A stretch of DNA of 64,000 bases, from assembly GCA_019187485.1 (NCBI GenBank), contig JABAQR010000001.1, positions 40,359 to 104,358 of the forward strand. The letters run 5' to 3'. Positions 4,244-59,023 of the stretch are shown one piece after another (the first letter of the stretch is position 1; every line of letters starts with the position of its first letter). The notes beneath the pieces were generated by a model. The model did no database searches and was not told where the DNA came from. It saw only the letters and a program-made list of their open reading frames with translations. Origin of the DNA: Lysobacterales bacterium. GTDB taxonomy: Bacteria; Pseudomonadota; Gammaproteobacteria; Xanthomonadales; SZUA-5. Both the position numbers and the translations under genes were made by a program.

Positions 4244-5596
4244 CTACTCGCGTCGCACTCCGATTGCGTATTTCTCCATGCGCCGGTACAGCGCCTGGCG
4301 CGAGAGGCCGAGGGAAAGGGCGGCTTCGGCGACGACGCCGCCGGCGCGCGCGAGGGCGGCTTCGATCTCGTCGCGGCTGGGCTCGCGCAGTGCGTTGTCG
4401 GCGGCGGCAGCGGTGGCCGGGGCCGCGGGCAGGCCGAGGTCGTCGGCCTGGACCACGCCGTCGCGGCACAGCAGGCTGGCGCGCGTGAGCGCGTTCTTCA
4501 GCTCGCGCACATTGCCCGGCCAGGCGTGTGCCTCCAGCGCGCGACGCGCACCGTCGGACAGGCGTGCCTGTCCGGCCAGGAAGTGCTCGGCCAGCGGCAC
4601 GATGTCCTCGCGGCGCTCGGCGAGAGGCGGCAGGCGCACTTCGATCACGTTGAGGCGGTAGTACAGGTCCTCGCGGAAATCGCCGCGGCGGATCATCGCC
4701 GCCAGGTCCGCATTGGTGGCCGAGAGCACGCGCACCTTGACCTCGCGGGTACGATTGCTGCCCAGGCGCTCGAAGCGCCCGGTCTCGAGCACGCGCAGCA
4801 GCTTCATCTGCCCGGCCGGCGAGAGATTGCCGATCTCGTCGAGGAACAGGGTGCCGCCATCAGCCGCCTCGAAGCGCCCTTCGCGCGCCTTGCCGGCACC
4901 GGTGTAGGCTCCGGCCTCGGCGCCGAACAGTTCGGCCTCCAGCAAGTCGGCCGGCAGCGCGCCGCAGTTGACCGCAACAAAGGGGCCGTCCTTGACCCGC
5001 GAATTGGCGTGGATGATCTCGGCGATGCGCTCCTTGCCGGCGCCGTTCGGGCCGGTGATCAGCACCGGCACATCCGCCCTGGCCACCTGGCAGGCGAGGC
5101 GCAGCACGCGTTCCATCGCCGGCGCGGCGTACACCATGCCGCGCAGATCGTACTCGCGCGCCAGCGAGCGCCGGCCCTCGGATTCGCGCGCCACCAGCTT
5201 GCGCGCCTGGCGGTTGCTCTCGGCCAGCTCCAGCAGGTTGCGTACGGTGGTCAGCAGGCGCGCGTCGTCCCACGGCTTGGACAGATAATCGGCCGCGCCG
5301 GCCTTGACCAGGCCCACCGCCTGTTCGAGATGCGTCCACGCGGTCAGCAGGATCACCGGCAGGTCCGGATGGCGCTCGCGGATCTGCCGGAACAGCACCA
5401 CGCCTTCCTCGCCGCTGGTGGTGTCGGCCGAGAAGTTCATGTCCTGGATCACCAGGTCGACGGGTTCGCGCGCGAGGATGTCTAGCCCCACGCGCGGACT
5501 CTGCGCCGTGCTGACCGTGTGCCCGTCGAGGCCCAGCAGCAGTTCCAGCGCGGTGCCGATGGCGGGGTTGTCGTCGATGATGAGGATGGCGGGCAT
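4244..5596 (-). CDS. Sigma-54-dependent response regulator (NtrC/Fis family): REC, AAA+ and HTH domains
   Basis: REC domain (ILIIDDNP..DLVIQDMNF), AAA+ Walker A (GPNGAGKE), GAFTGA-like loop (GAEAGAYTGA), Walker B (LFLDEIG) and a C-terminal Fis-type HTH. Confidence 0.92.
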   Translation of the reverse strand: MPAILIIDDNPAIGTALELLLGLDGHTVSTAQSPRVGLDILAREPVDLVIQDMNFSADTTSGEEGVVLFRQIRERHPDLPVILLTAWTHLEQAVGLVKAGAADYLSKPWDDARLLTTVRNLLELAESNRQARKLVARESEGRRSLAREYDLRGMVYAAPAMERVLRLACQVARADVPVLITGPNGAGKERIAEIIHANSRVKDGPFVAVNCGALPADLLEAELFGAEAGAYTGAGKAREGRFEAADGGTLFLDEIGNLSPAGQMKLLRVLETGRFERLGSNRTREVKVRVLSATNADLAAMIRRGDFREDLYYRLNVIEVRLPPLAERREDIVPLAEHFLAGQARLSDGARRALEAHAWPGNVRELKNALTRASLLCRDGVVQADDLGLPAAPATAAAADNALREPSRDEIEAALARAGGVVAEAALSLGLSRQALYRRMEKYAIGVRRE

Positions 5597-5652
5597 GTAT
5601 CAGTCGTGAGTAGAAGTTCGGTAGGGCGCCATCAGCAACTAGCAATTGGCAA

Positions 5653-6033
5653 CTAGCGATTAGGGCGAGTTTCCTGGAGGGCTGAATTGCGGTCCAGCGA
5701 CTTTCGAAGCGATTGCAGCATCCGGCCCAGCTCGCTTGCCGAGCGCAGTACTGGATCAATGGGTTCGCGCGTCAGCTCCAGTCTCCCAGCGAGCAGGCAT
5801 TGTGTCTCCAGTTCGGCGAGAGAGCCCATTGCGATGGCGAGGAAGCGCGCGAACTCCCGGGTGAACAACCGAGATCGGCCTTCCGCGATGCACGACGGGA
5901 CGGAAACGGCGGAACGGCGTATCTGTTGCGCCAATCCATAGCGCTCTGTGTCTGGCAAGGACTGCGCAATTCGATAGGCCGCCGTCGCCAGATTCATGGC
6001 GCGTTTCCAAACGTCGAGGTCGCGATAGCTCAT
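5653..6033 (-). CDS. Four-helix-bundle protein, 23S rRNA intervening-sequence protein family (PF05635/TIGR02436; Avd-like fold)
   Basis: Start chosen at MSYRDLDVWKRAMNLA. Family hallmarks are present: YGLAQQIRRSAVSVPSCIAEG and FLAIAMGSLAELETQ. The last codons and the TAG stop (CCT AAT CGC TAG) are supplied by the left hairpin arm. Confidence 0.8.
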   Translation of the reverse strand: MSYRDLDVWKRAMNLATAAYRIAQSLPDTERYGLAQQIRRSAVSVPSCIAEGRSRLFTREFARFLAIAMGSLAELETQCLLAGRLELTREPIDPVLRSASELGRMLQSLRKSLDRNSALQETRPNR

Positions 6034-6150
6034 TGGTACGCGATGGATGATTAGGTTGCGTCGATCAGGGTGCCCCGACAAATTACTTGGCGAACCTCGC
6101 AGGCATTGAATACTCCCGTTGCCACAAACTCTCCTCAGCGCACCCTAATC

Positions 6151-6234
6151 GCTAGTCGCTAGTCGCTAGTTGCTAGTCGCTAGTCGCTAGTCGCTAGTCG
6201 CTAGTTGCTAGTTGCTAGTTGCTAGTTGCTATCT
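6151..6234. repeat. Tandem heptamer array: GCTAGTC/GCTAGTT x11 plus one degenerate unit (GCTATCT)
   Basis: Counted directly, with units starting at 6151, 6158, ... 6221, 6228. The array ends 7 nt before the stop codon (6242-6244) of the permease gene. CTAG is palindromic and the period is 7, so TAG appears in all three frames on both strands. Confidence 0.95.
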
Positions 6235-6241
6235 GCTGCTC

Positions 6242-7459
6242 TCAAGCCGAACGCGTCGCGATCGCCGGCGCGATGCGCGAGGCGCGCAGCGCGGGGCCGA
6301 GGACGGCGAGCTGGCCGAGGATCAGCACCAGCGCGCCGCCGATCGGCAGCCAGGACAGCGGCAACTGGTCGAAGCCGAAGTTCTGCACCAACCAGCCGTT
6401 GACGCCGATCGCGAGCGCCGAGCCGATGGTGATGCCGATCAGCGCGATCAGCGCGTTCTCGGTCTGGAAGTAGCGCAGGACGTCCTTGCGCCGGGCGCCG
6501 AGCGCGCGGCGGGTGCCGATCTGCTTGGTCCGTTGGGTGACCCAGAAGCTGGCCTGGCCAACGATGCCGAAGGCGGTCACAGCCAGCAAAGAGATGCCGA
6601 TCACCGCCAGCAGCACGGCCATCGCCAGATCGCTCTGGAAGGCGCTGCTGCGGATCTCCTCGAAGGCGCGGATGTTGCTGACGATGCGGTTGGGATTGAC
6701 CTTGAACAGGGTTTCCTCGACCACCTTCATCACGCGGTCGCGCTCGCCGGGCTCGGTACGCACGATGAAGCCACCGAGGCCGACGGAGGCGTGCGGCACG
6801 AACACCACGCGGTCCGGGTTGCGTGAGCGCGGCCACGGCGTGGCGATGTGCTCGGTCACGCCGATCACGCGCTGCGACGGCTCGCCCTGGTTGCCGGTGA
6901 TGTTGATCATCTTGCCGATCGCGCTTTCGCCGGGGAACAGGCGCTCGGCAAGGCCCTTGTTGATCAGCACCACCGGCGGGTTGGGCTGGTCGCCCTGCTT
7001 GAACGGGGTGATCTCGCCGGGCGTGAAGTAGCGACCCTCGATGACCTTGGCGCCCAGCGAATCCAGCAGGCGCTCATCGGCGAAATACAACGCCGCGGCG
7101 CGTTCCGGGCCTTCGATGCGTTCGCCCGGCGTCAGCGTCACCGCGGTCTGCCAGCCGTCGCGCACCAGCGGGAAGCTGAAGCCGGGGCTTGCGGCCAACA
7201 CGCCCGGGATCGCGAGGATGGCCTTGATGTCCTCCTCGTTGGCGATCACCGGATCGCGCGTGTTGCCGATGTTCTGGTTGCCGAGCACGAAGACGTTGGG
7301 CTCGTCGACACCACTGGCGATGGCCATCGTGCGGATGCGCTCGGTGACGATGAAGAGCACATTGGCAAGGATCGCCAAGGTCAGCGCAATCTGCGCGGCG
7401 ATCAACACCGCGGCCACCGGATTGCGTTTCATCGAGGAGAGGATGGGGCGGATTTCCAT
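6242..7459 (-). CDS. ABC transporter permease, MacB/FtsX-like (N-terminal TM, periplasmic domain, C-terminal FtsX 3-TM)
   Basis: The track ORF 6242..7681 was trimmed to MEIRPILSSMKRNPVAAVLIAAQIAL, with a GGAG 9-12 nt upstream on the minus strand. The upstream extension reads through hairpin B and looks non-coding. Confidence 0.88.
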   Translation of the reverse strand: MEIRPILSSMKRNPVAAVLIAAQIALTLAILANVLFIVTERIRTMAIASGVDEPNVFVLGNQNIGNTRDPVIANEEDIKAILAIPGVLAASPGFSFPLVRDGWQTAVTLTPGERIEGPERAAALYFADERLLDSLGAKVIEGRYFTPGEITPFKQGDQPNPPVVLINKGLAERLFPGESAIGKMINITGNQGEPSQRVIGVTEHIATPWPRSRNPDRVVFVPHASVGLGGFIVRTEPGERDRVMKVVEETLFKVNPNRIVSNIRAFEEIRSSAFQSDLAMAVLLAVIGISLLAVTAFGIVGQASFWVTQRTKQIGTRRALGARRKDVLRYFQTENALIALIGITIGSALAIGVNGWLVQNFGFDQLPLSWLPIGGALVLILGQLAVLGPALRASRIAPAIATRSA

Positions 7460-7481
7460 TTTGGGACTCCGGGGAAGCGAG

Positions 7482-7628
7482 AGCGGGGCAAGGGGCAGGG
7501 GTCGGGCATCAGGGCAGGGACGGACGTCGAGGTGGCTCGGGAGGGATGCAACCGCGCCATCTCCAGCCCGCGACAGCATTCGTCCGAGCCGCAGGGCAGG
7601 TCCCCTGCCCCTTGACCCTTGCCCCGCT
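7482..7628. repeat. Hairpin element 'B': AGCGGGG(CAAGGGG)n arms with a ~100-nt loop
   Basis: Left arm 7482-7501 is AGCGGGGCAAGGGGCAGGGG. The reverse complement of right arm 7602-7628 is AGCGGGGCAAGG-GTCAAGG-GGCAGGGG. The two are identical except for one extra heptad. Confidence 0.9.
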
Positions 7629-7649
7629 TTGATGGACATCGCACATGGC

Positions 7650-8963
7650 TCACTGGGTCTTGAGCTGCGACGCCGGCGCAATCCGGCAGGCGCGCCAGGC
7701 GGGATAGGCGCCGGCGGCGACTGCGCCGGCCACCGCGGTGACCAGGAGCATCCCGAACAGGCCGACGTCGAGTCGCGCGACGTCGTCGAAATTGGGCATC
7801 AGGCTGCGCACCAGGGCCAGGCCGCCGAGCGTCAGGAGCAGGCCGCAGACCGCGCCGAGCGCTCCAATCAGGCCGGATTCGGTGAGGTGCTGGGCGAAGA
7901 TCGCGCTGCGCCTGGCGCCGAGCGCGCGGCGCAGGCCGATCTCGCCGCTCTTGCGCAGGAACTTGCTGAGCAGCAAGCCGGCGGCGTTCAGCAGGCAGAC
8001 GATCAGGAAGGCCACGCCGACGCCGACGAAGATGCGGGTATCGTCCGGAACCACGTTGTTGACCGCCAGCCAGCCCATCACCGGCGTGATCCGGTGGTTG
8101 TCCGGGCGGCCGAAACGACCGGCCTTGCGCTGCTCGGCGACATAGGCGTCAAGGTAGGCCTGGTAGGCGGACACAGCGGCGGCATCCGGCAGTTCCACCC
8201 AGTATTGGGTCATGATGCACTCGGAGTCCATCAGGCCCCGGTAGCCGGGCGCCGACGGAGGCTGCCAGCAGTTGATGTTGCCGTTGATGTCCATTTCCCT
8301 GGCGGTGGCCACGGTGAATGGCAGGAACACGTCTTCCGGATCGTCGAGGGTGTTGTTGGTGACGTCGTAGAAGCGCGGGCGCAGCTCCCAGGTGTCGAGC
8401 ACGCCGGTGATGCTGAAGTCCTCGTCGTCGAAGCGGATGCGCTGGCCGACCACATCGGTCTTCTTGAACACCCGCTCGGCGAGTTCGCGGGTGATCACCG
8501 CGACACGCGCCTCGCGCTGCTCGTCTTCCTTCGACCAGCCGCCGCCATGCAGGAAGGGGGCGTCGAACATCGCGAACAGGTCGCCGCCGGTGACGCGCAC
8601 CGAGGCGTTGCGCGGGCGCACCTGCGGATCTGCCGGCACCACCACCACGGAGGACTGGTACATCCCGGCCTGGCGCAGGCCCTTGGCATCGGCCATCAGC
8701 CGGCGCGTGTCGCCGTGCGTCAGCTGGTCCGGCGGCAGCCCGCGTTCGCGGTCGTAAGGCGACTGCGGATCCCAGTTGTCCAGCTGCACCGCGTAGAGCA
8801 CATCGCTCTTGTGCGGAATCGGGTTGTTCGACAGCCGGTAGAGCACGGTGAACGAGGTCATCGCCGTGGCCAGGCCCAGCGCGATCGCCAGCACCATCAG
8901 CGTCGACAGCACCGGCGTGCGCTTGAGCGCCAGCAGGGCGAGTTTGAGGTAGTAGGTGAACAT
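7650..8963 (-). CDS. ABC transporter permease, MacB/FtsX-like (second paralogue)
   Basis: Track ORF of 437 aa. It starts MFTYYLKLALLALKRTPVLSTLMVLAIALG, has a large periplasmic domain, and ends in an FtsX-type region (LRRALGARRSAIFAQHLTESGLIG). Confidence 0.9.
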   Translation of the reverse strand: MFTYYLKLALLALKRTPVLSTLMVLAIALGLATAMTSFTVLYRLSNNPIPHKSDVLYAVQLDNWDPQSPYDRERGLPPDQLTHGDTRRLMADAKGLRQAGMYQSSVVVVPADPQVRPRNASVRVTGGDLFAMFDAPFLHGGGWSKEDEQREARVAVITRELAERVFKKTDVVGQRIRFDDEDFSITGVLDTWELRPRFYDVTNNTLDDPEDVFLPFTVATAREMDINGNINCWQPPSAPGYRGLMDSECIMTQYWVELPDAAAVSAYQAYLDAYVAEQRKAGRFGRPDNHRITPVMGWLAVNNVVPDDTRIFVGVGVAFLIVCLLNAAGLLLSKFLRKSGEIGLRRALGARRSAIFAQHLTESGLIGALGAVCGLLLTLGGLALVRSLMPNFDDVARLDVGLFGMLLVTAVAGAVAAGAYPAWRACRIAPASQLKTQ

Positions 8964-8993
8964 GGGGAGTCCTTGGAGTTTCGGGGACGTTGA

Positions 8994-9124
8994 AGCGGGT
9001 CAAGGGGCAGGGGGCAAGGGGGGCGGCACTCGGGCGCTTGCGAGCGGCTCGGCATCGACCGGACTGCGTCGAGGCTGGGGCATGCGGAGTTCTCGGTCCC
9101 CCGCCCCTTGCCCCTTGCCCCGCT
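8994..9124. repeat. Hairpin element 'C': the same AGCGGGK(CAAGGGG)n family as B
   Basis: Left arm 8994-9026 is AGCGGGT CAAGGGG CAGGGGG CAAGGGG GGCGG. The reverse complement of right arm 9098-9124 is AGCGGGG CAAGGGG CAAGGGG CGGGGG. The right arm ends 2 nt before the ATPase stop codon at 9127-9129. Confidence 0.9.
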
Positions 9125-9126
9125 TT

Positions 9127-9846
9127 TCACGCCACTGCGCGCACCCGCTCCACCGCCCGCACCGGGGCAAAGTCGTGTTCCGCGAGGTCGACCACCTGGC
9201 CGTCGACGATGTGCACGTGGCGGCGGGCGCGGCGGGCGAGTTCCAGGTCGTGGGTGACCATGACGATGGTGGTGCCCTGGTCGTTGATCTCCTCCAGCAG
9301 TTCCAGCACGCCGCGCGCCATCACGGTGTCGAGGTTGCCGGTGGGTTCGTCGGCGAGCAGCAGCTTGGGCTCGCCGGCAAGCGCGCGGGCGATCGCGACG
9401 CGCTGCTGCTGGCCGCCGGACAGCTCATTCGGGTAGTGGTGCAGGCGCGAGCCCAGGCCCACCCGCGACAGCGCCTGCTCGATGCGCCGCTTGCGCTCGG
9501 CCTTGGGGAAGCCGCGGTAGCGCAGCGGCACGTCGACGTTGTCGTACAGATCGAGATCGGCGATCAGGTTGAAGCTCTGGAAGATGAAGCCGATCTTCTC
9601 GTTGCGCAGGCGCGAGCGCGCATCGTCGTCCAGCTTCTTGACGTCGATGCCGTCGAGTTCATAGACGCCGTCGGTGTGCTCTTCGAGCAACCCGGCGATG
9701 TTGAGGAAAGTGGTCTTGCCCGAGCCCGACGGTCCGGTCACGGCGACGAACTCGCCGGCCTTGACGTCCAGCGTCAGGTCGCGCAGCGCATGGGTTTCCA
9801 CCAGCGCGGTGCGGAAGACTTTGCGGAGGTTCTGCATGTGCAGCAT
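9127..9846 (-). CDS. ABC transporter ATP-binding protein (MacB/LolD-type)
   Basis: Walker A (GPSGSGKTT), Q-loop, ABC signature (LSGGQQQRVAIARAL), Walker B (LLLADEPTGNLD) and H-loop (VMVTHD). Confidence 0.95.
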   Translation of the reverse strand: MLHMQNLRKVFRTALVETHALRDLTLDVKAGEFVAVTGPSGSGKTTFLNIAGLLEEHTDGVYELDGIDVKKLDDDARSRLRNEKIGFIFQSFNLIADLDLYDNVDVPLRYRGFPKAERKRRIEQALSRVGLGSRLHHYPNELSGGQQQRVAIARALAGEPKLLLADEPTGNLDTVMARGVLELLEEINDQGTTIVMVTHDLELARRARRHVHIVDGQVVDLAEHDFAPVRAVERVRAVA

Positions 9847-9885
9847 AGGTCGGATTCCTCTGGGCGTACTGGGCTTTGCTTCAAC

Positions 9886-10000
9886 GGAGTGAGTAGTCGC
9901 GCGGCTGCGCCGCGCTCAGTAGTGAGTGGTGAGTAGCAAAAGCCCGCAATCTGGACTCTCGCCGCTTCTGCCACTCACTACTCACCACTCACTACTCACC
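9886..10000. repeat. Hairpin element 'D': alternating AGTGAGT/GGTGAGT heptads
   Basis: Left 9918-9936 (AGTAGTGAGTGGTGAGTAG) pairs perfectly, 19 of 19 bp, with right 9978-9996. The right arm 9971-10000 is (CCACTCA CTACTCA)x2 and ends 3 nt before the MFP stop at 10004-10006. An extra left copy sits at 9886-9897 and a nested GC hairpin at 9899-9915. Confidence 0.9.
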
Positions 10001-10003
10001 GCT

Positions 10004-11269
10004 TCACCGCGTCAACAACACTTCCTCCACGCCGCGCAGATCGTCGATGCCGGCCACGATGACCTGCTGGCCGGGCGTGAGGCCGTCGACGACTTCGAAG
10101 GCGGAGACCGAACTGGCGCCGAGGCGGATCGGGTGGCGGCGGGCGACATCGCCGTCGATCACCCAGGCGAAGCTGGCGTCGCGCTCGAAGGCGGGGCCGC
10201 GCTCGACCAGCATCACGTCGGGCTTTTCCTCCAGCAGCACGCGCACCTGCACCCGCTGGTTCTGGCGCAGCGCGGCGACGTTCGCATCGCTCAGGCGGAT
10301 GCGCGTCAGCACCTGCGCGTTCTGCACCTCGGGCGAGACCAGGCGCACCTCGCCGCGCAGCTTCTCGCCGCCGACGGTGACCTCGGCACTCTGGCCCGGC
10401 AGCAGGGATTCGGCGTAGACCTCGGCGACCGCGGCCTCCACCTCCAGCTCGGTCAGGTCGACGACCGTCATCAACGCCTGGTTGGCGGCGACGCTGGCGC
10501 GGTCGGTGACCAGCCAGTTGCCGACCACGCCGTCGAAGGGCGCGCGCACTTCCAGCGCGGCGACCTGGCGCTCAAGCTCGGTCACCAGCACCTGCTGGCT
10601 GGCCAGCTGCTCGTCGAAGGACTTCAGCTCCAGCGCCAGCGCATCGCGCTCCAGCGCCAGGTCGGCCTCGGCCGTGGCCAGCGTGATCCGCGCGCTCTCC
10701 ACCGAATCCTGCGCGCGCTTGAAGTCGAATTCCGGCAGCGCGCCCAGCTTGAACGCGCGCTCGGTGCGCTCCAGCTCGCGCCGCGCGGCCATCTCGGCGA
10801 TGCGCGCGGTGTCGATCGCGCGGCGCTTCTCCAACAGGGTGCGGCGGTTGGTGATCTCCTGGCGCGAACGCTCGGCGGCCACGCGCGCCAGGGTCGATTG
10901 CTCGCGCTTGAGTTCGCTCTCCAGTTCGGGGCTGTCGACGGTCGCCAGCAGCTCATCCTTGCGCACGATCGCGCCCGGCTCGATCGCGAACTTCACGATG
11001 CCGGCCGCGGAGGTGTACAGCGAGGGCGAGCGCGCCGCCACGACCCGGCCCTGCGAGGACACGTCGCGTACCAGCGTGCCGCGCTTGACCTCGCCGATGC
11101 GCACGCGCTCACGCGGCAGAGTGCGTTCTGCACCCAGCGTAGGCGCGAGCAGCCACACGCAACCGATGAGCAGCAGGCCCACACCGCCGGTCAACGCCCA
11201 GGGCCGGCGCCAGACGGGTGCGCCGGTCTGCTGCAGGGGACGGTCGGTGGCAGAGGTATCGCGAATCAT
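10004..11269 (-). CDS. HlyD/MFP-family periplasmic adaptor subunit
   Basis: It has an N-terminal TM (WALTGGVGLLLIGCVWLL), a long coiled-coil hairpin region and a C-terminal beta-barrel. It is the first gene of the MFP-ATPase-permease-permease operon. Confidence 0.9.
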   Translation of the reverse strand: MIRDTSATDRPLQQTGAPVWRRPWALTGGVGLLLIGCVWLLAPTLGAERTLPRERVRIGEVKRGTLVRDVSSQGRVVAARSPSLYTSAAGIVKFAIEPGAIVRKDELLATVDSPELESELKREQSTLARVAAERSRQEITNRRTLLEKRRAIDTARIAEMAARRELERTERAFKLGALPEFDFKRAQDSVESARITLATAEADLALERDALALELKSFDEQLASQQVLVTELERQVAALEVRAPFDGVVGNWLVTDRASVAANQALMTVVDLTELEVEAAVAEVYAESLLPGQSAEVTVGGEKLRGEVRLVSPEVQNAQVLTRIRLSDANVAALRQNQRVQVRVLLEEKPDVMLVERGPAFERDASFAWVIDGDVARRHPIRLGASSVSAFEVVDGLTPGQQVIVAGIDDLRGVEEVLLTR

Positions 11270-42625: not shown

Positions 42626-42683
42626 GGGATAGACCAGCTCTCCAAACACCCGATGACTCGCAGATCTTCGGACAGCAGATTGG

Positions 42684-42757
42684 TCCGCAAAGGACGCAAA
42701 GGACGCAAAGGAATCAAGAGCTTCTGCTTTCTTCGCGTCCTTTGCGTTCTTTGCGGA
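42684..42757. repeat. Hairpin element 'E': 30-nt arms built from three CGCAAAGGA 9-mers, with a 14-nt loop
   Basis: Left arm 42684-42713 is TCCGCAAAGGACGCAAAGGACGCAAAGGAA. The reverse complement of right arm 42728-42757 is TCCGCAAAGAACGCAAAGGACGCGAAGAAA, matching at 27 of 30 positions. It lies between convergent gene ends. Confidence 0.9.
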
Positions 42758-42847
42758 CAAGAAGCTCCTGTCGGTAGATGATGCGCGTGTCACGTAGTCC
42801 GCGTTGCGGACAACGTGACCTACGAAAACAATGACTTGTCGGATGTT

Positions 42848-58848: not shown

Positions 58849-58923
<75 letters not shown>

Positions 58924-58937
58924 TCCTTCGAGAAGCT

Positions 58938-59023
58938 GGAAAAAGGGAAAGGGAAAAAGGAAAAAGGGACTTGCGTCCCGGTGGCGCGCCTTCCCCTTTT
59001 TCCTTTTTCCCTTTCCTTTTTCC
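58938..59023. repeat. Hairpin element 'F': 32-nt all-purine arm and all-pyrimidine arm
   Basis: Left arm 58938-58969 is GGAAAAAGGGAAAGGGAAAAAGGAAAAAGGGA. The reverse complement of right arm 58992-59023 is GGAAAAAGGAAAGGGAAAAAGGAAAAAGGGGA, differing only by a shifted G. The 22-nt loop contains a GGGAC-TTGC-GTCCC mini-hairpin. The element starts 14 nt after the tRNA-Lys and ends 13 nt before the trpS ATG. Confidence 0.92.

Follow-up and report, generated by a model that had tools for sequence, protein, structure and literature searches.

Proteins of the PF05635/TIGR02436 family form a very large group that is scattered over bacterial genomes, rRNA intervening sequences (IVSs) and cas operons, and an over-representation of heptanucleotide repeats in bacteria, for example the cyanobacterial STRR sequences (repetitive DNA of short tandem repeats) and the Xanthomonas GGGAATC repeats, has long been noted without a mechanism. 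Here we describe a locus that contains both. It lies in a 64,000-nt stretch of DNA from a Lysobacterales bacterium (GenBank assembly GCA_019187485.1, contig JABAQR010000001.1, positions 40,359 to 104,358; hereafter the window), where a gene for a four-helix-bundle (4HB) protein of this family is enclosed by inverted arrays of 7-nt units in the spacer that separates an ABC permease gene from a sigma-54 regulator gene. We give a probability of roughly 0.6 to the reading that this is one copy of a widespread compact cassette, in which a PF05635 gene is bracketed by inverted 7-nt arrays in the design of the 23S IVSs that carry an open reading frame (ORF).

Among the described systems, the 23S IVS of Coxiella burnetii encodes the family member S23p; its stem contains, on the 5' side, GACAGAT two to three times in tandem, a number that is strain-dependent, and RNase III cuts this IVS in vitro at the first repeat (PMC4990558). 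In Xanthomonas, Rehm et al. (2015) counted about 185 GGGAATC-type heptamer repeats per genome, 70–75 of them as convergent pairs, which are mostly located between aligned ORFs, are transcribed and show strand preference; similar repeats occur in Nostoc (PMC4692102). The repeats of both genera were interpreted as formers of G-quadruplexes (G4), which G-rich units form in vitro, and a phase-variation-like role of the Xanthomonas repeats was judged unlikely (PMC4692102). One row of the supplement places a repeat, 6 nt from bccP (XCC0517), over the start of XCC0516, with no comment in the text (PMC4692102). Heptamers are cited in PMC4679880 as the most abundant long simple-sequence repeats (SSRs) in bacteria, with polymerase slippage proposed as their origin. 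Genes labelled 23S_rRNA_IVP have also been reported between cas genes, namely cmr3 and cmr2 (PMC3936711). An earlier note on this DNA, made from the sequence alone, knew of no heptad-armed carriers of the gene family; the Coxiella IVS, the inverted Xanthomonas and Nostoc heptamers and the XCC0516 row are such precedents, and the statement stands in a narrower form, as our literature search, with subscription journals outside its coverage, found no paper linking the PF05635 family to heptamer repeats.

The window locus is a well-defined IVS-type PF05635 cassette located outside rRNA. Its parts are as follows.

5653..6033, minus strand: 4HB protein gene (PF05635/TIGR02436), 126 codons and a TAG stop; based on profile matches, similarity to 2GSC and dN/dS
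6143..6234, minus strand: 5' arm (in sense orientation), an inner box, 11 perfect heptamers and one degenerate heptamer; based on Tandem Repeats Finder (TRF), inverted repeats and direct reading
6034..6142, minus strand: leader of 109 nt, from the 5' arm to the ATG; based on the inverted-repeat search and predicted folds
5634..5665, minus strand: 3' arm, in sense CCCTAATCGC TAGTTGC CAATTGC TAGTTGC T; based on the inverted-repeat search

The minus-strand ORF starts with ATG, has 126 codons at 6033..5656 and ends with TAG at 5655..5653. Its product matched both family profiles well above their cutoffs (PF05635, E=1.6e-31, 109.1 bits vs 33.8; TIGR02436, E=1.2e-31, 109.2 bits vs 24), and the closest solved structure was PDB 2GSC, which is XCC0516 of Xanthomonas campestris (E=1.4e-24). 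A helix-face motif G..R...S...N..E has been described for the family (PMC3936711), and residues R40, S44, E51 and G52 of the window protein are conserved in the family alignment. The family motif PSNIAEG reads PSCIAEG in the window (5880-5900, residues 44-52), the near-invariant Asn being Cys in six of six orthologues.

Read outwards from the gene, the 5' arm begins with an inner box at 6143-6150 (CGATTAGGG in sense, CCCTAATC on the plus strand) and continues with 11 perfect units, AGCRACT in sense and GCTAGTY on the plus strand (6151-6227), and a final GCTATCT (6228-6234). TRF reported the array at 6145-6231 with a period of 7, 12.4 copies and 95% matches, and 7 nt separate the array end from the permease stop codon (6242-6244). 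Segments 5634-5665 and 6143-6174 form an inverted repeat of 32 nt with 88% complementarity, and the left arm pairs still better with the distal units at 6194-6223 (30 nt, 90%). Terminal inverted repeats thus enclose the element as in an IVS, with arms of 30–32 nt that are 88–90% complementary; none of the 253 shifted windows taken as controls from related loci contained an inverted repeat of such strength (score 21). The final codons of the gene, CCT AAT CGC (P-N-R), and its TAG fall inside the 3' arm. GC content is 0.55–0.63 within the cassette and about 0.68–0.72 in the flanks, and GC3 is 0.68 for the 4HB gene vs 0.90–0.92 for four neighbouring genes. The family assignment, the complementary arms, the array of 11 perfect units and one degenerate unit ending 7 nt short of the permease stop, the arm-borne last three codons and stop, the lower GC content and the position of an IVS-like element between protein genes had all been proposed in the earlier note, and all were borne out. 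An Rfam scan of 5400-10200 returned chance matches only and no rRNA, and a PADLOC scan gave no match. The gene is the only PF05635 member in the 64-kb window.

The same arrangement recurred beside other genes of the family. An alignment-based scan with one genome per species yielded 80 loci, of which 75 had enough flanking sequence for analysis; they came from Acidobacteriota, Planctomycetota, Chloroflexota, Clostridia, Bacteroidota, several proteobacterial classes, the candidate phyla radiation (CPR) and others (individual loci are designated L with a number). Compared with shifted windows of the same loci, the frequencies were as follows.

Period-7 array on at least one side: 79% of 4HB genes (n=75), 7% of shifted windows (n=253)
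Period-7 arrays on both sides: 40% of 4HB genes, 0% of shifted windows
Complementary arms with an inverted-repeat (IR) score of at least 12: 79% of 4HB genes, 2% of shifted windows (Mann–Whitney p=5e-28)

No enrichment was seen for periods 4–6 and 8–10 beside 4HB genes, each of which occurred at no more than 4% of the loci. The shifted windows were mostly coding, and neighbouring-ORF and intergenic-gap controls were added using a crude longest-ORF gene call. Arms with a score of at least 12 flanked 8 of 164 neighbouring ORFs, six of which scored at least 14; two of those six proved to be additional PF05635 genes. Arrays on both sides were seen for none of the 164. Heptamer arrays were present in 9% of the other intergenic gaps of related loci vs 50% of those next to the 4HB gene. 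Heptamer arms are thus a hallmark of the gene family across phyla, plasmids and viral contigs and are not peculiar to the window locus, which answers the question, raised by the earlier note, of whether other PF05635 genes are flanked by inverted tandem-repeat arms.

The unit sequence varied by locus around a shared degenerate consensus, Y-R-G-K-N-R-Y (4.42 bits vs 3.62 ± 0.10 for the null); the window unit TAGTTGC fits this consensus and departs from the G-rich GGGNATC consensus. The G-rich arm was upstream of the 4HB gene in 60 of 67 loci, and the upstream neighbour was co-oriented in about 45 of 57 loci (crude ORF call). The 5' arm usually ended 10–60 nt before the start codon and the 3' arm usually started between -30 and +40 of the stop codon, which implies that many family genes take their end from the arm. 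Direct repeats flanking the gene, of the kind left by target duplication, were not general across the loci. The heptamer-arm design was also found in cultured cyanobacteria, on plasmids from Calothrix, Nostoc and Anabaena, and, among 26 loci on IMG/VR viral contigs, arrays were present in 16 and complementary arms in 21.

Several cassettes may occur in one genome, as in L044 and L080 from the same Sulfotelmatobacter metagenome-assembled genome (MAG), or in one locus, as in L019 (1248-1598 and 2661-3008), and they carry different heptamer units; such differences within one genome argue against recognition of a single specific unit sequence by the protein. On the Anabaena sp. 90 plasmid pANA02 (L107), about 40 heptamers CAGGTGA/CAGGGAA (1125-1489) precede a 4HB gene, itself an insertion between cas6 and cas4 in a type I-D locus. 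We suspect that arrays of this kind beside IVP genes contribute to the 'CRISPR-associated' label of 23S_rRNA_IVP.

Conservation of the cassette was examined in close relatives. The exact protein is present in uncultured Xanthomonadales MAGs and metagenomes, and eight independent assemblies show no difference over 740 nt across the cassette, so that no strain-level variation in unit number is visible. The cassette occupies the same junction in L009, L013 and L096-L099, whose 4HB proteins are 87–65% identical to that of the window, and also in L100, whose protein was compared with that of L009 (dN 0.007) and not scored directly against that of the window. Among the orthologues, dN/dS of the 4HB gene was 0.05–0.18 with dS mostly >1, values that indicate strong purifying selection on the protein. 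The RPNR C-terminus is kept in six of six proteins, and the codons CGC CCY AAT CGC TAG are identical despite saturated dS; their sole variable base covaries with its partner in the 5' box. The numbers of units in the arms were as follows.

Window: 12 units in the 5' arm, 3 in the 3' arm
L009: about 3 in the 5' arm, about 3 in the 3' arm
L100: 3 in the 5' arm (AACTAGC), 8 in the 3' arm (TAGTTGC)
L013: about 4 in the 5' arm, about 11 in the 3' arm

These counts indicate that arm expansion occurred independently on either side. Between L009 and L100 (dS 0.11), one and the same base substitution sets apart each of the three 5' units (AACTGGC vs AACTAGC), and the 3' units differ to match them, a change that is both concerted and compensatory. 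Turnover of units with complementarity kept looks like slippage plus homogenisation. Replication slippage with a stem length varying between cells or strains, as suggested in the earlier note, therefore agrees with the gain and loss of units and with the expanded arm swapping sides between species, but not with the identity of the eight assemblies. Leaders also changed: L098 and L099 encode an identical 4HB protein, yet a 129-nt insertion that does not consist of heptamers lies in the leader, inside the box between GCGCGCTAA and TCGCC (L098 3770-3900), and the L100 leader contains a 63-nt tandem duplication.

Two outgroup operons, L103 and L104 (Tahibacter aquaticus), whose permeases are 49 and 46% identical, respectively, have the same gene order without a 4HB gene at the permease–regulator junction, and this comparison supplies the empty site for which the earlier note had called. 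Their ABC genes are 10–25 nt apart, and no heptamer hairpin was found there. Because the outgroups lack both, the cassette and the gene-less hairpins described below are derived insertions in the window clade; the outgroups are too diverged to give exact insertion boundaries. With dS>1 between orthologues at the same site, the insertion is old and has been passed on vertically within an uncultured Xanthomonadales clade; it did not arrive recently from a foreign source. The earlier suggestion of a foreign or mobile origin is hence kept for a derived insertion with still atypical GC3, but not for a recent one.

At the RNA level, the 661-nt minus-strand segment 5600-6260 folded at -256.4 kcal/mol vs -237.4 ± 7.7 kcal/mol for shuffles (z=-2.47), and was thus modestly more stable in this comparison, which the earlier note had proposed. 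In the minimum-energy structure, the distal heptamers and the 3' arm enclose the gene, and the leader folds separately into a local hairpin. Within this leader, at about 6062-6078, lies a degenerate second version of the 3' box that can pair with the 5' box to give a loop of about 56–80 nt; this local hairpin was predicted in six of six orthologues and within the full fold of the window cassette. Over the six orthologues, 92.9% of the cells of a 33-pair stem can pair vs 19–51% when the partner is slid, and one inner stem pair runs through A-U, G-U and G-C states. Non-Watson–Crick positions within the clade comprise 19 G.U vs 5 A.C, and in 5 of the 6 clade orthologues the stem has greater stability in sense than in antisense orientation. 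Arm-only tests were used for this strand comparison, since duplex energies of whole 300-nt flanks (about -178 kcal/mol) were uninformative.

Several of our results weigh against the cassette reading or its RNA-level side. The 80 loci were picked through two peptide motifs of close-ish relatives, so the 79% figure may not hold family-wide. The 5' arm unit of the window is not G-rich and departs from the family polarity, and the full-length fold improves on shuffles by a modest margin only. A covariation shuffle control over the six orthologues was not significant (85/500), and the RNA-level signature is confined to the clade, that is, to six related sequences. Arm mismatches across the family gave no sense-strand wobble excess (G.U 62 vs A.C 82), so that no general RNA-level signature can be claimed. 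Finally, the Tahibacter permease–regulator spacer carries a classic intrinsic terminator, and co-transcription across this junction is thus not to be assumed.

The host operon runs on the minus strand in the order adaptor, ABC ATPase, permease A, permease B, 4HB gene and sigma-54 response regulator, and all of its other spacers hold a gene-less hairpin with heptamer arms. These features, together with the genes next to the cassette and a further hairpin near a tRNA gene, are listed below.

6242..7459, minus strand: MacB/FtsX-type ABC permease B, upstream host gene (Pfam FtsX and MacB_PCD; 405 aa as called in L001)
4244..5596, minus strand: NtrC-type sigma-54-dependent response regulator, downstream host gene (Pfam Response_reg, Sigma54_activat and HTH_8)
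7482..7628, minus strand: hairpin between permease A and permease B, unit GGGGCAA-like, 5' arm (in operon direction) G-rich, fold z=-3.1
8993..9125, minus strand: hairpin between ABC ATPase and permease A, unit GGGGCAA, fold z=-4.1
9912..10002, minus strand: hairpin between adaptor and ABC ATPase, unit AGTGRGT, fold z=-7.8
58938..59023, plus strand: hairpin 15 nt after tRNA-Lys(ttt), unit GGAAAAA, fold z=-5.8

These hairpins were found by an IR-first search, strict detection of array pairs having under-called short arms. Five of the seven strongest inverted repeats of the window (score of at least 16) are heptamer-armed, and a sixth has 9-nt units. A hairpin with period-9 arms lies at 42683-42758 (fold z=-9.1), where three copies of CGCAAAGGA pair with TCCTTTGCG across a 20-nt loop. 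The arms near the tRNA gene (GGAAAAA/CCTTTTT, in the region 58849-59023) are 28 nt long and 96% complementary, and this hairpin may be the tRNA-Lys terminator. Of 15 heptamer hairpins, mostly gene-less, in the operon loci of the clade, 14 carry their G-rich arm on the 5' side relative to the operon direction; this polarity, like that in 60 of 67 family loci, fits the strand preference published for Xanthomonas (PMC4692102).

Arrays can also disturb gene calls. The hairpin at 7460-7681 of the window is read as an N-terminal extension of permease B, which gives a mechanical ORF of 479 aa vs 405 aa, and the same artefact is present in L002 (3395-4792), with a permease B of 465 aa in one MAG gene call. 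In the spacer from the response regulator to the histidine kinase, L013 (5855-6250) and L100 (6747-7234) contain G-rich heptamers CGGTTGT/CGGTTGC followed by nested hairpins, then a reading frame ending '...RPNR*' on the box GCGCCCTAATCGC, and then further heptamers. This stretch resembles what would remain of the 3' end of a second 4HB cassette after loss of its gene body. In L098, the corresponding spacer holds a clean gene-less heptamer hairpin.

As for expression, no consensus promoter and no terminator-like site (GC-rich stem plus U-tract) was found in 5400-6400, and no Shine–Dalgarno sequence is evident before the ATG of the 4HB gene. Since no promoter, terminator or ribosome-binding site belonging to the cassette was found, it probably rides on the transcript of the host operon. 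In such a transcript, the 5' arm RNA could pair with either of two partners: the internal box before the ATG, which gives the small hairpin, or the gene-closing 3' arm. Twelve units would allow the two pairings to coexist, which is a possible purpose of the extra units. A stem of about 30 bp would be a target for RNase III, and we infer such processing at the window locus by analogy with the Coxiella IVS, which is cut in vitro. Cutting there would set the 4HB mRNA free and separate the message of the transporter from that of the regulator. Like its distant relative Avd, the protein is probably a nucleic-acid binder, and it probably acts on stems of this type. A link of the family to HEPN proteins found no confirmation in the literature search and is not claimed. 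More speculatively, the G-rich-first polarity might keep C-rich RNA from Rho.

A further proposal, which we regard as doubtful, is that 4HB proteins and heptamer hairpins are the two halves of one system, in the manner of the REP-associated tyrosine transposases (RAYT) and the repetitive extragenic palindromic (REP) sequences. Under this proposal, the protein would bind heptamer stems, in cis those of its own cassette or in trans those that lack a gene, and would either drive or stabilise the creation, expansion and spread of stems or gate their processing by RNase III.

The arrays might instead be the terminal inverted repeats of a DNA-level mobile element, that is, a unit resembling a transposon or a MITE (miniature inverted-repeat transposable element), with the RNA structure being incidental, the 4HB protein acting as a DNA-binding factor for mobilisation or maintenance and the gene-less hairpins being non-autonomous derivatives. 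The derived state of the cassette and of the gene-less hairpins, both absent from the outgroups, would follow from this explanation, as would the cassettes on plasmids and viral contigs, the units that differ between cassettes, the lack of a family-wide G.U excess, the possible second-cassette relic ('...RPNR*' plus heptamers) in L013 and L100, and the still atypical GC3. It is nevertheless at odds with the absence of any transposase, integrase or nuclease domain and of a reverse transcriptase nearby, with direct repeats that are not general, with a cassette kept at one site through dS>1, with an arm polarity that follows the direction of transcription and with the sense-strand wobble excess within the clade. 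Overall, we consider a purely DNA-level element unlikely.

Coincidence is a second explanation, in which a slippage-made SSR hairpin of the Xanthomonadales kind happens to hold a small 4HB gene without any functional link. Heptamers are the most over-represented long SSRs in many bacteria (PMC4679880), and inverted pairs are common in Xanthomonas (PMC4692102); the window itself has four gene-less heptamer hairpins, and heptamer arrays are present in 9% of the other intergenic gaps of related loci. Chance does not, however, readily account for complementary arms at 79% of loci in many phyla vs 5% of neighbouring genes, for both-side arrays at 40% vs 0%, for the many loci whose genes take their C-terminal codons and stop from the arm, or for arm-borne end codons frozen in six orthologues despite saturated dS. 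An association that holds after matching for intergenic location and genome would also speak against chance, and this is largely the case already in our controls. We therefore regard coincidence as very improbable.

The heptamers might also form a contingency (phase-variation) or G-quadruplex repeat whose unit number switches the expression of the downstream sigma-54 regulator, since unit number differs between species and between Coxiella strains (PMC4990558), and G-rich heptamers of this class form G4 in vitro (PMC4692102). The window unit AGCRACT is not G-rich and so cannot form G4, the eight assemblies are identical, the published analysis deemed a phase-variation role unlikely (PMC4692102), and the conserved gene inside would be left unexplained; we give this explanation very little credence indeed. 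Identity as the Avd accessory gene of a diversity-generating retroelement (DGR) was rejected and retains next to no probability, because the similarity is weak (NF033474, E=0.004, 17.4 bits vs a cutoff of 80; phrog_3206, E=2e-4; weak bAvd matches in homologues) and the genes within 10 kb include no RVT (reverse transcriptase) domain and the surrounding 10 kb no template-repeat/variable-repeat (TR/VR) pair.

The window locus and its relatives show that the gene and its heptamer-armed hairpin travel as one module across phyla, with gene-bearing and gene-less versions occupying adjacent spacers of one operon. This result ties together observations that were published but remained unconnected, among them rRNA IVSs, the heptamer excess and the hypothetical PF05635 family, and it is open to tests in organisms that can be cultured, Xanthomonas campestris (XCC0516) and Nostoc among them. 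If the one-system proposal were true, a single link would explain the excess of 7-nt repeats (STRR, GGGNATC), the ORF-bearing IVSs and the function of a large family. Annotation is affected as well, as gene calls take the arrays for N-terminal extensions of the genes next to them, and we suspect that arrays could also mimic CRISPR-like ones.

Heptamer arms are not part of the definition of DGRs, and the window protein shares with DGR Avd the four-helix-bundle fold and weak similarity; it differs in its score below the cutoff and in the lack of an RT or TR/VR here. By analogy only, the locus resembles REP or bacterial interspersed mosaic elements (BIME) with RAYT, in that a gene is bracketed by inverted repeat copies and the repeat also occurs gene-less in operon spacers; unlike REP/RAYT, it has no Y1 transposase, and its tandem heptamers differ by site instead of forming one conserved palindrome. 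The locus also resembles the Xanthomonas/Nostoc GGGNATC repeats and the cyanobacterial STRR, which are tandem 7-nt units in varying number (2–26) that lie for the most part in spacers of aligned ORFs, frequently as convergent pairs with the capacity to fold into stem-loops. As in heptameric SSRs, the window array has a period of 7, a number that varies among orthologues and convergent arms, and the gene-less hairpins of the window operon, as well as the cassette arms of L050, L077 and L095 (Xanthomonas and Pseudoxanthomonas), belong to this class of repeats. The window unit itself, unlike the GGGNATC repeats, is not G-rich, and the Xanthomonas/Nostoc papers treat their repeats as G4-forming SSRs without a tie to a gene family.

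With the ORF-bearing 23S IVSs of Coxiella and Leptospira, the cassette shares a PF05635-family ORF looped by terminal inverted repeats and the lack of an evident ribosome-binding site or promoter within the element, and with the Coxiella IVS it also shares heptamers in the stem. It differs from 23S IVSs, which lie in helix 25 or 45, in its host, a spacer between protein genes; from the Coxiella IVS in its far longer array of 12 units; and from Coxiella S23p, judged to be decaying, in a protein held under strong purifying selection. XCC0516, the closest solved homologue, is located next to bccP with a GGGAATC-type repeat over its start, and the IVP genes of cas operons (cmr3/cmr2 and cas6/cas4) are intercistronic insertions like the window cassette; the host operons of all these genes differ from that of the window.

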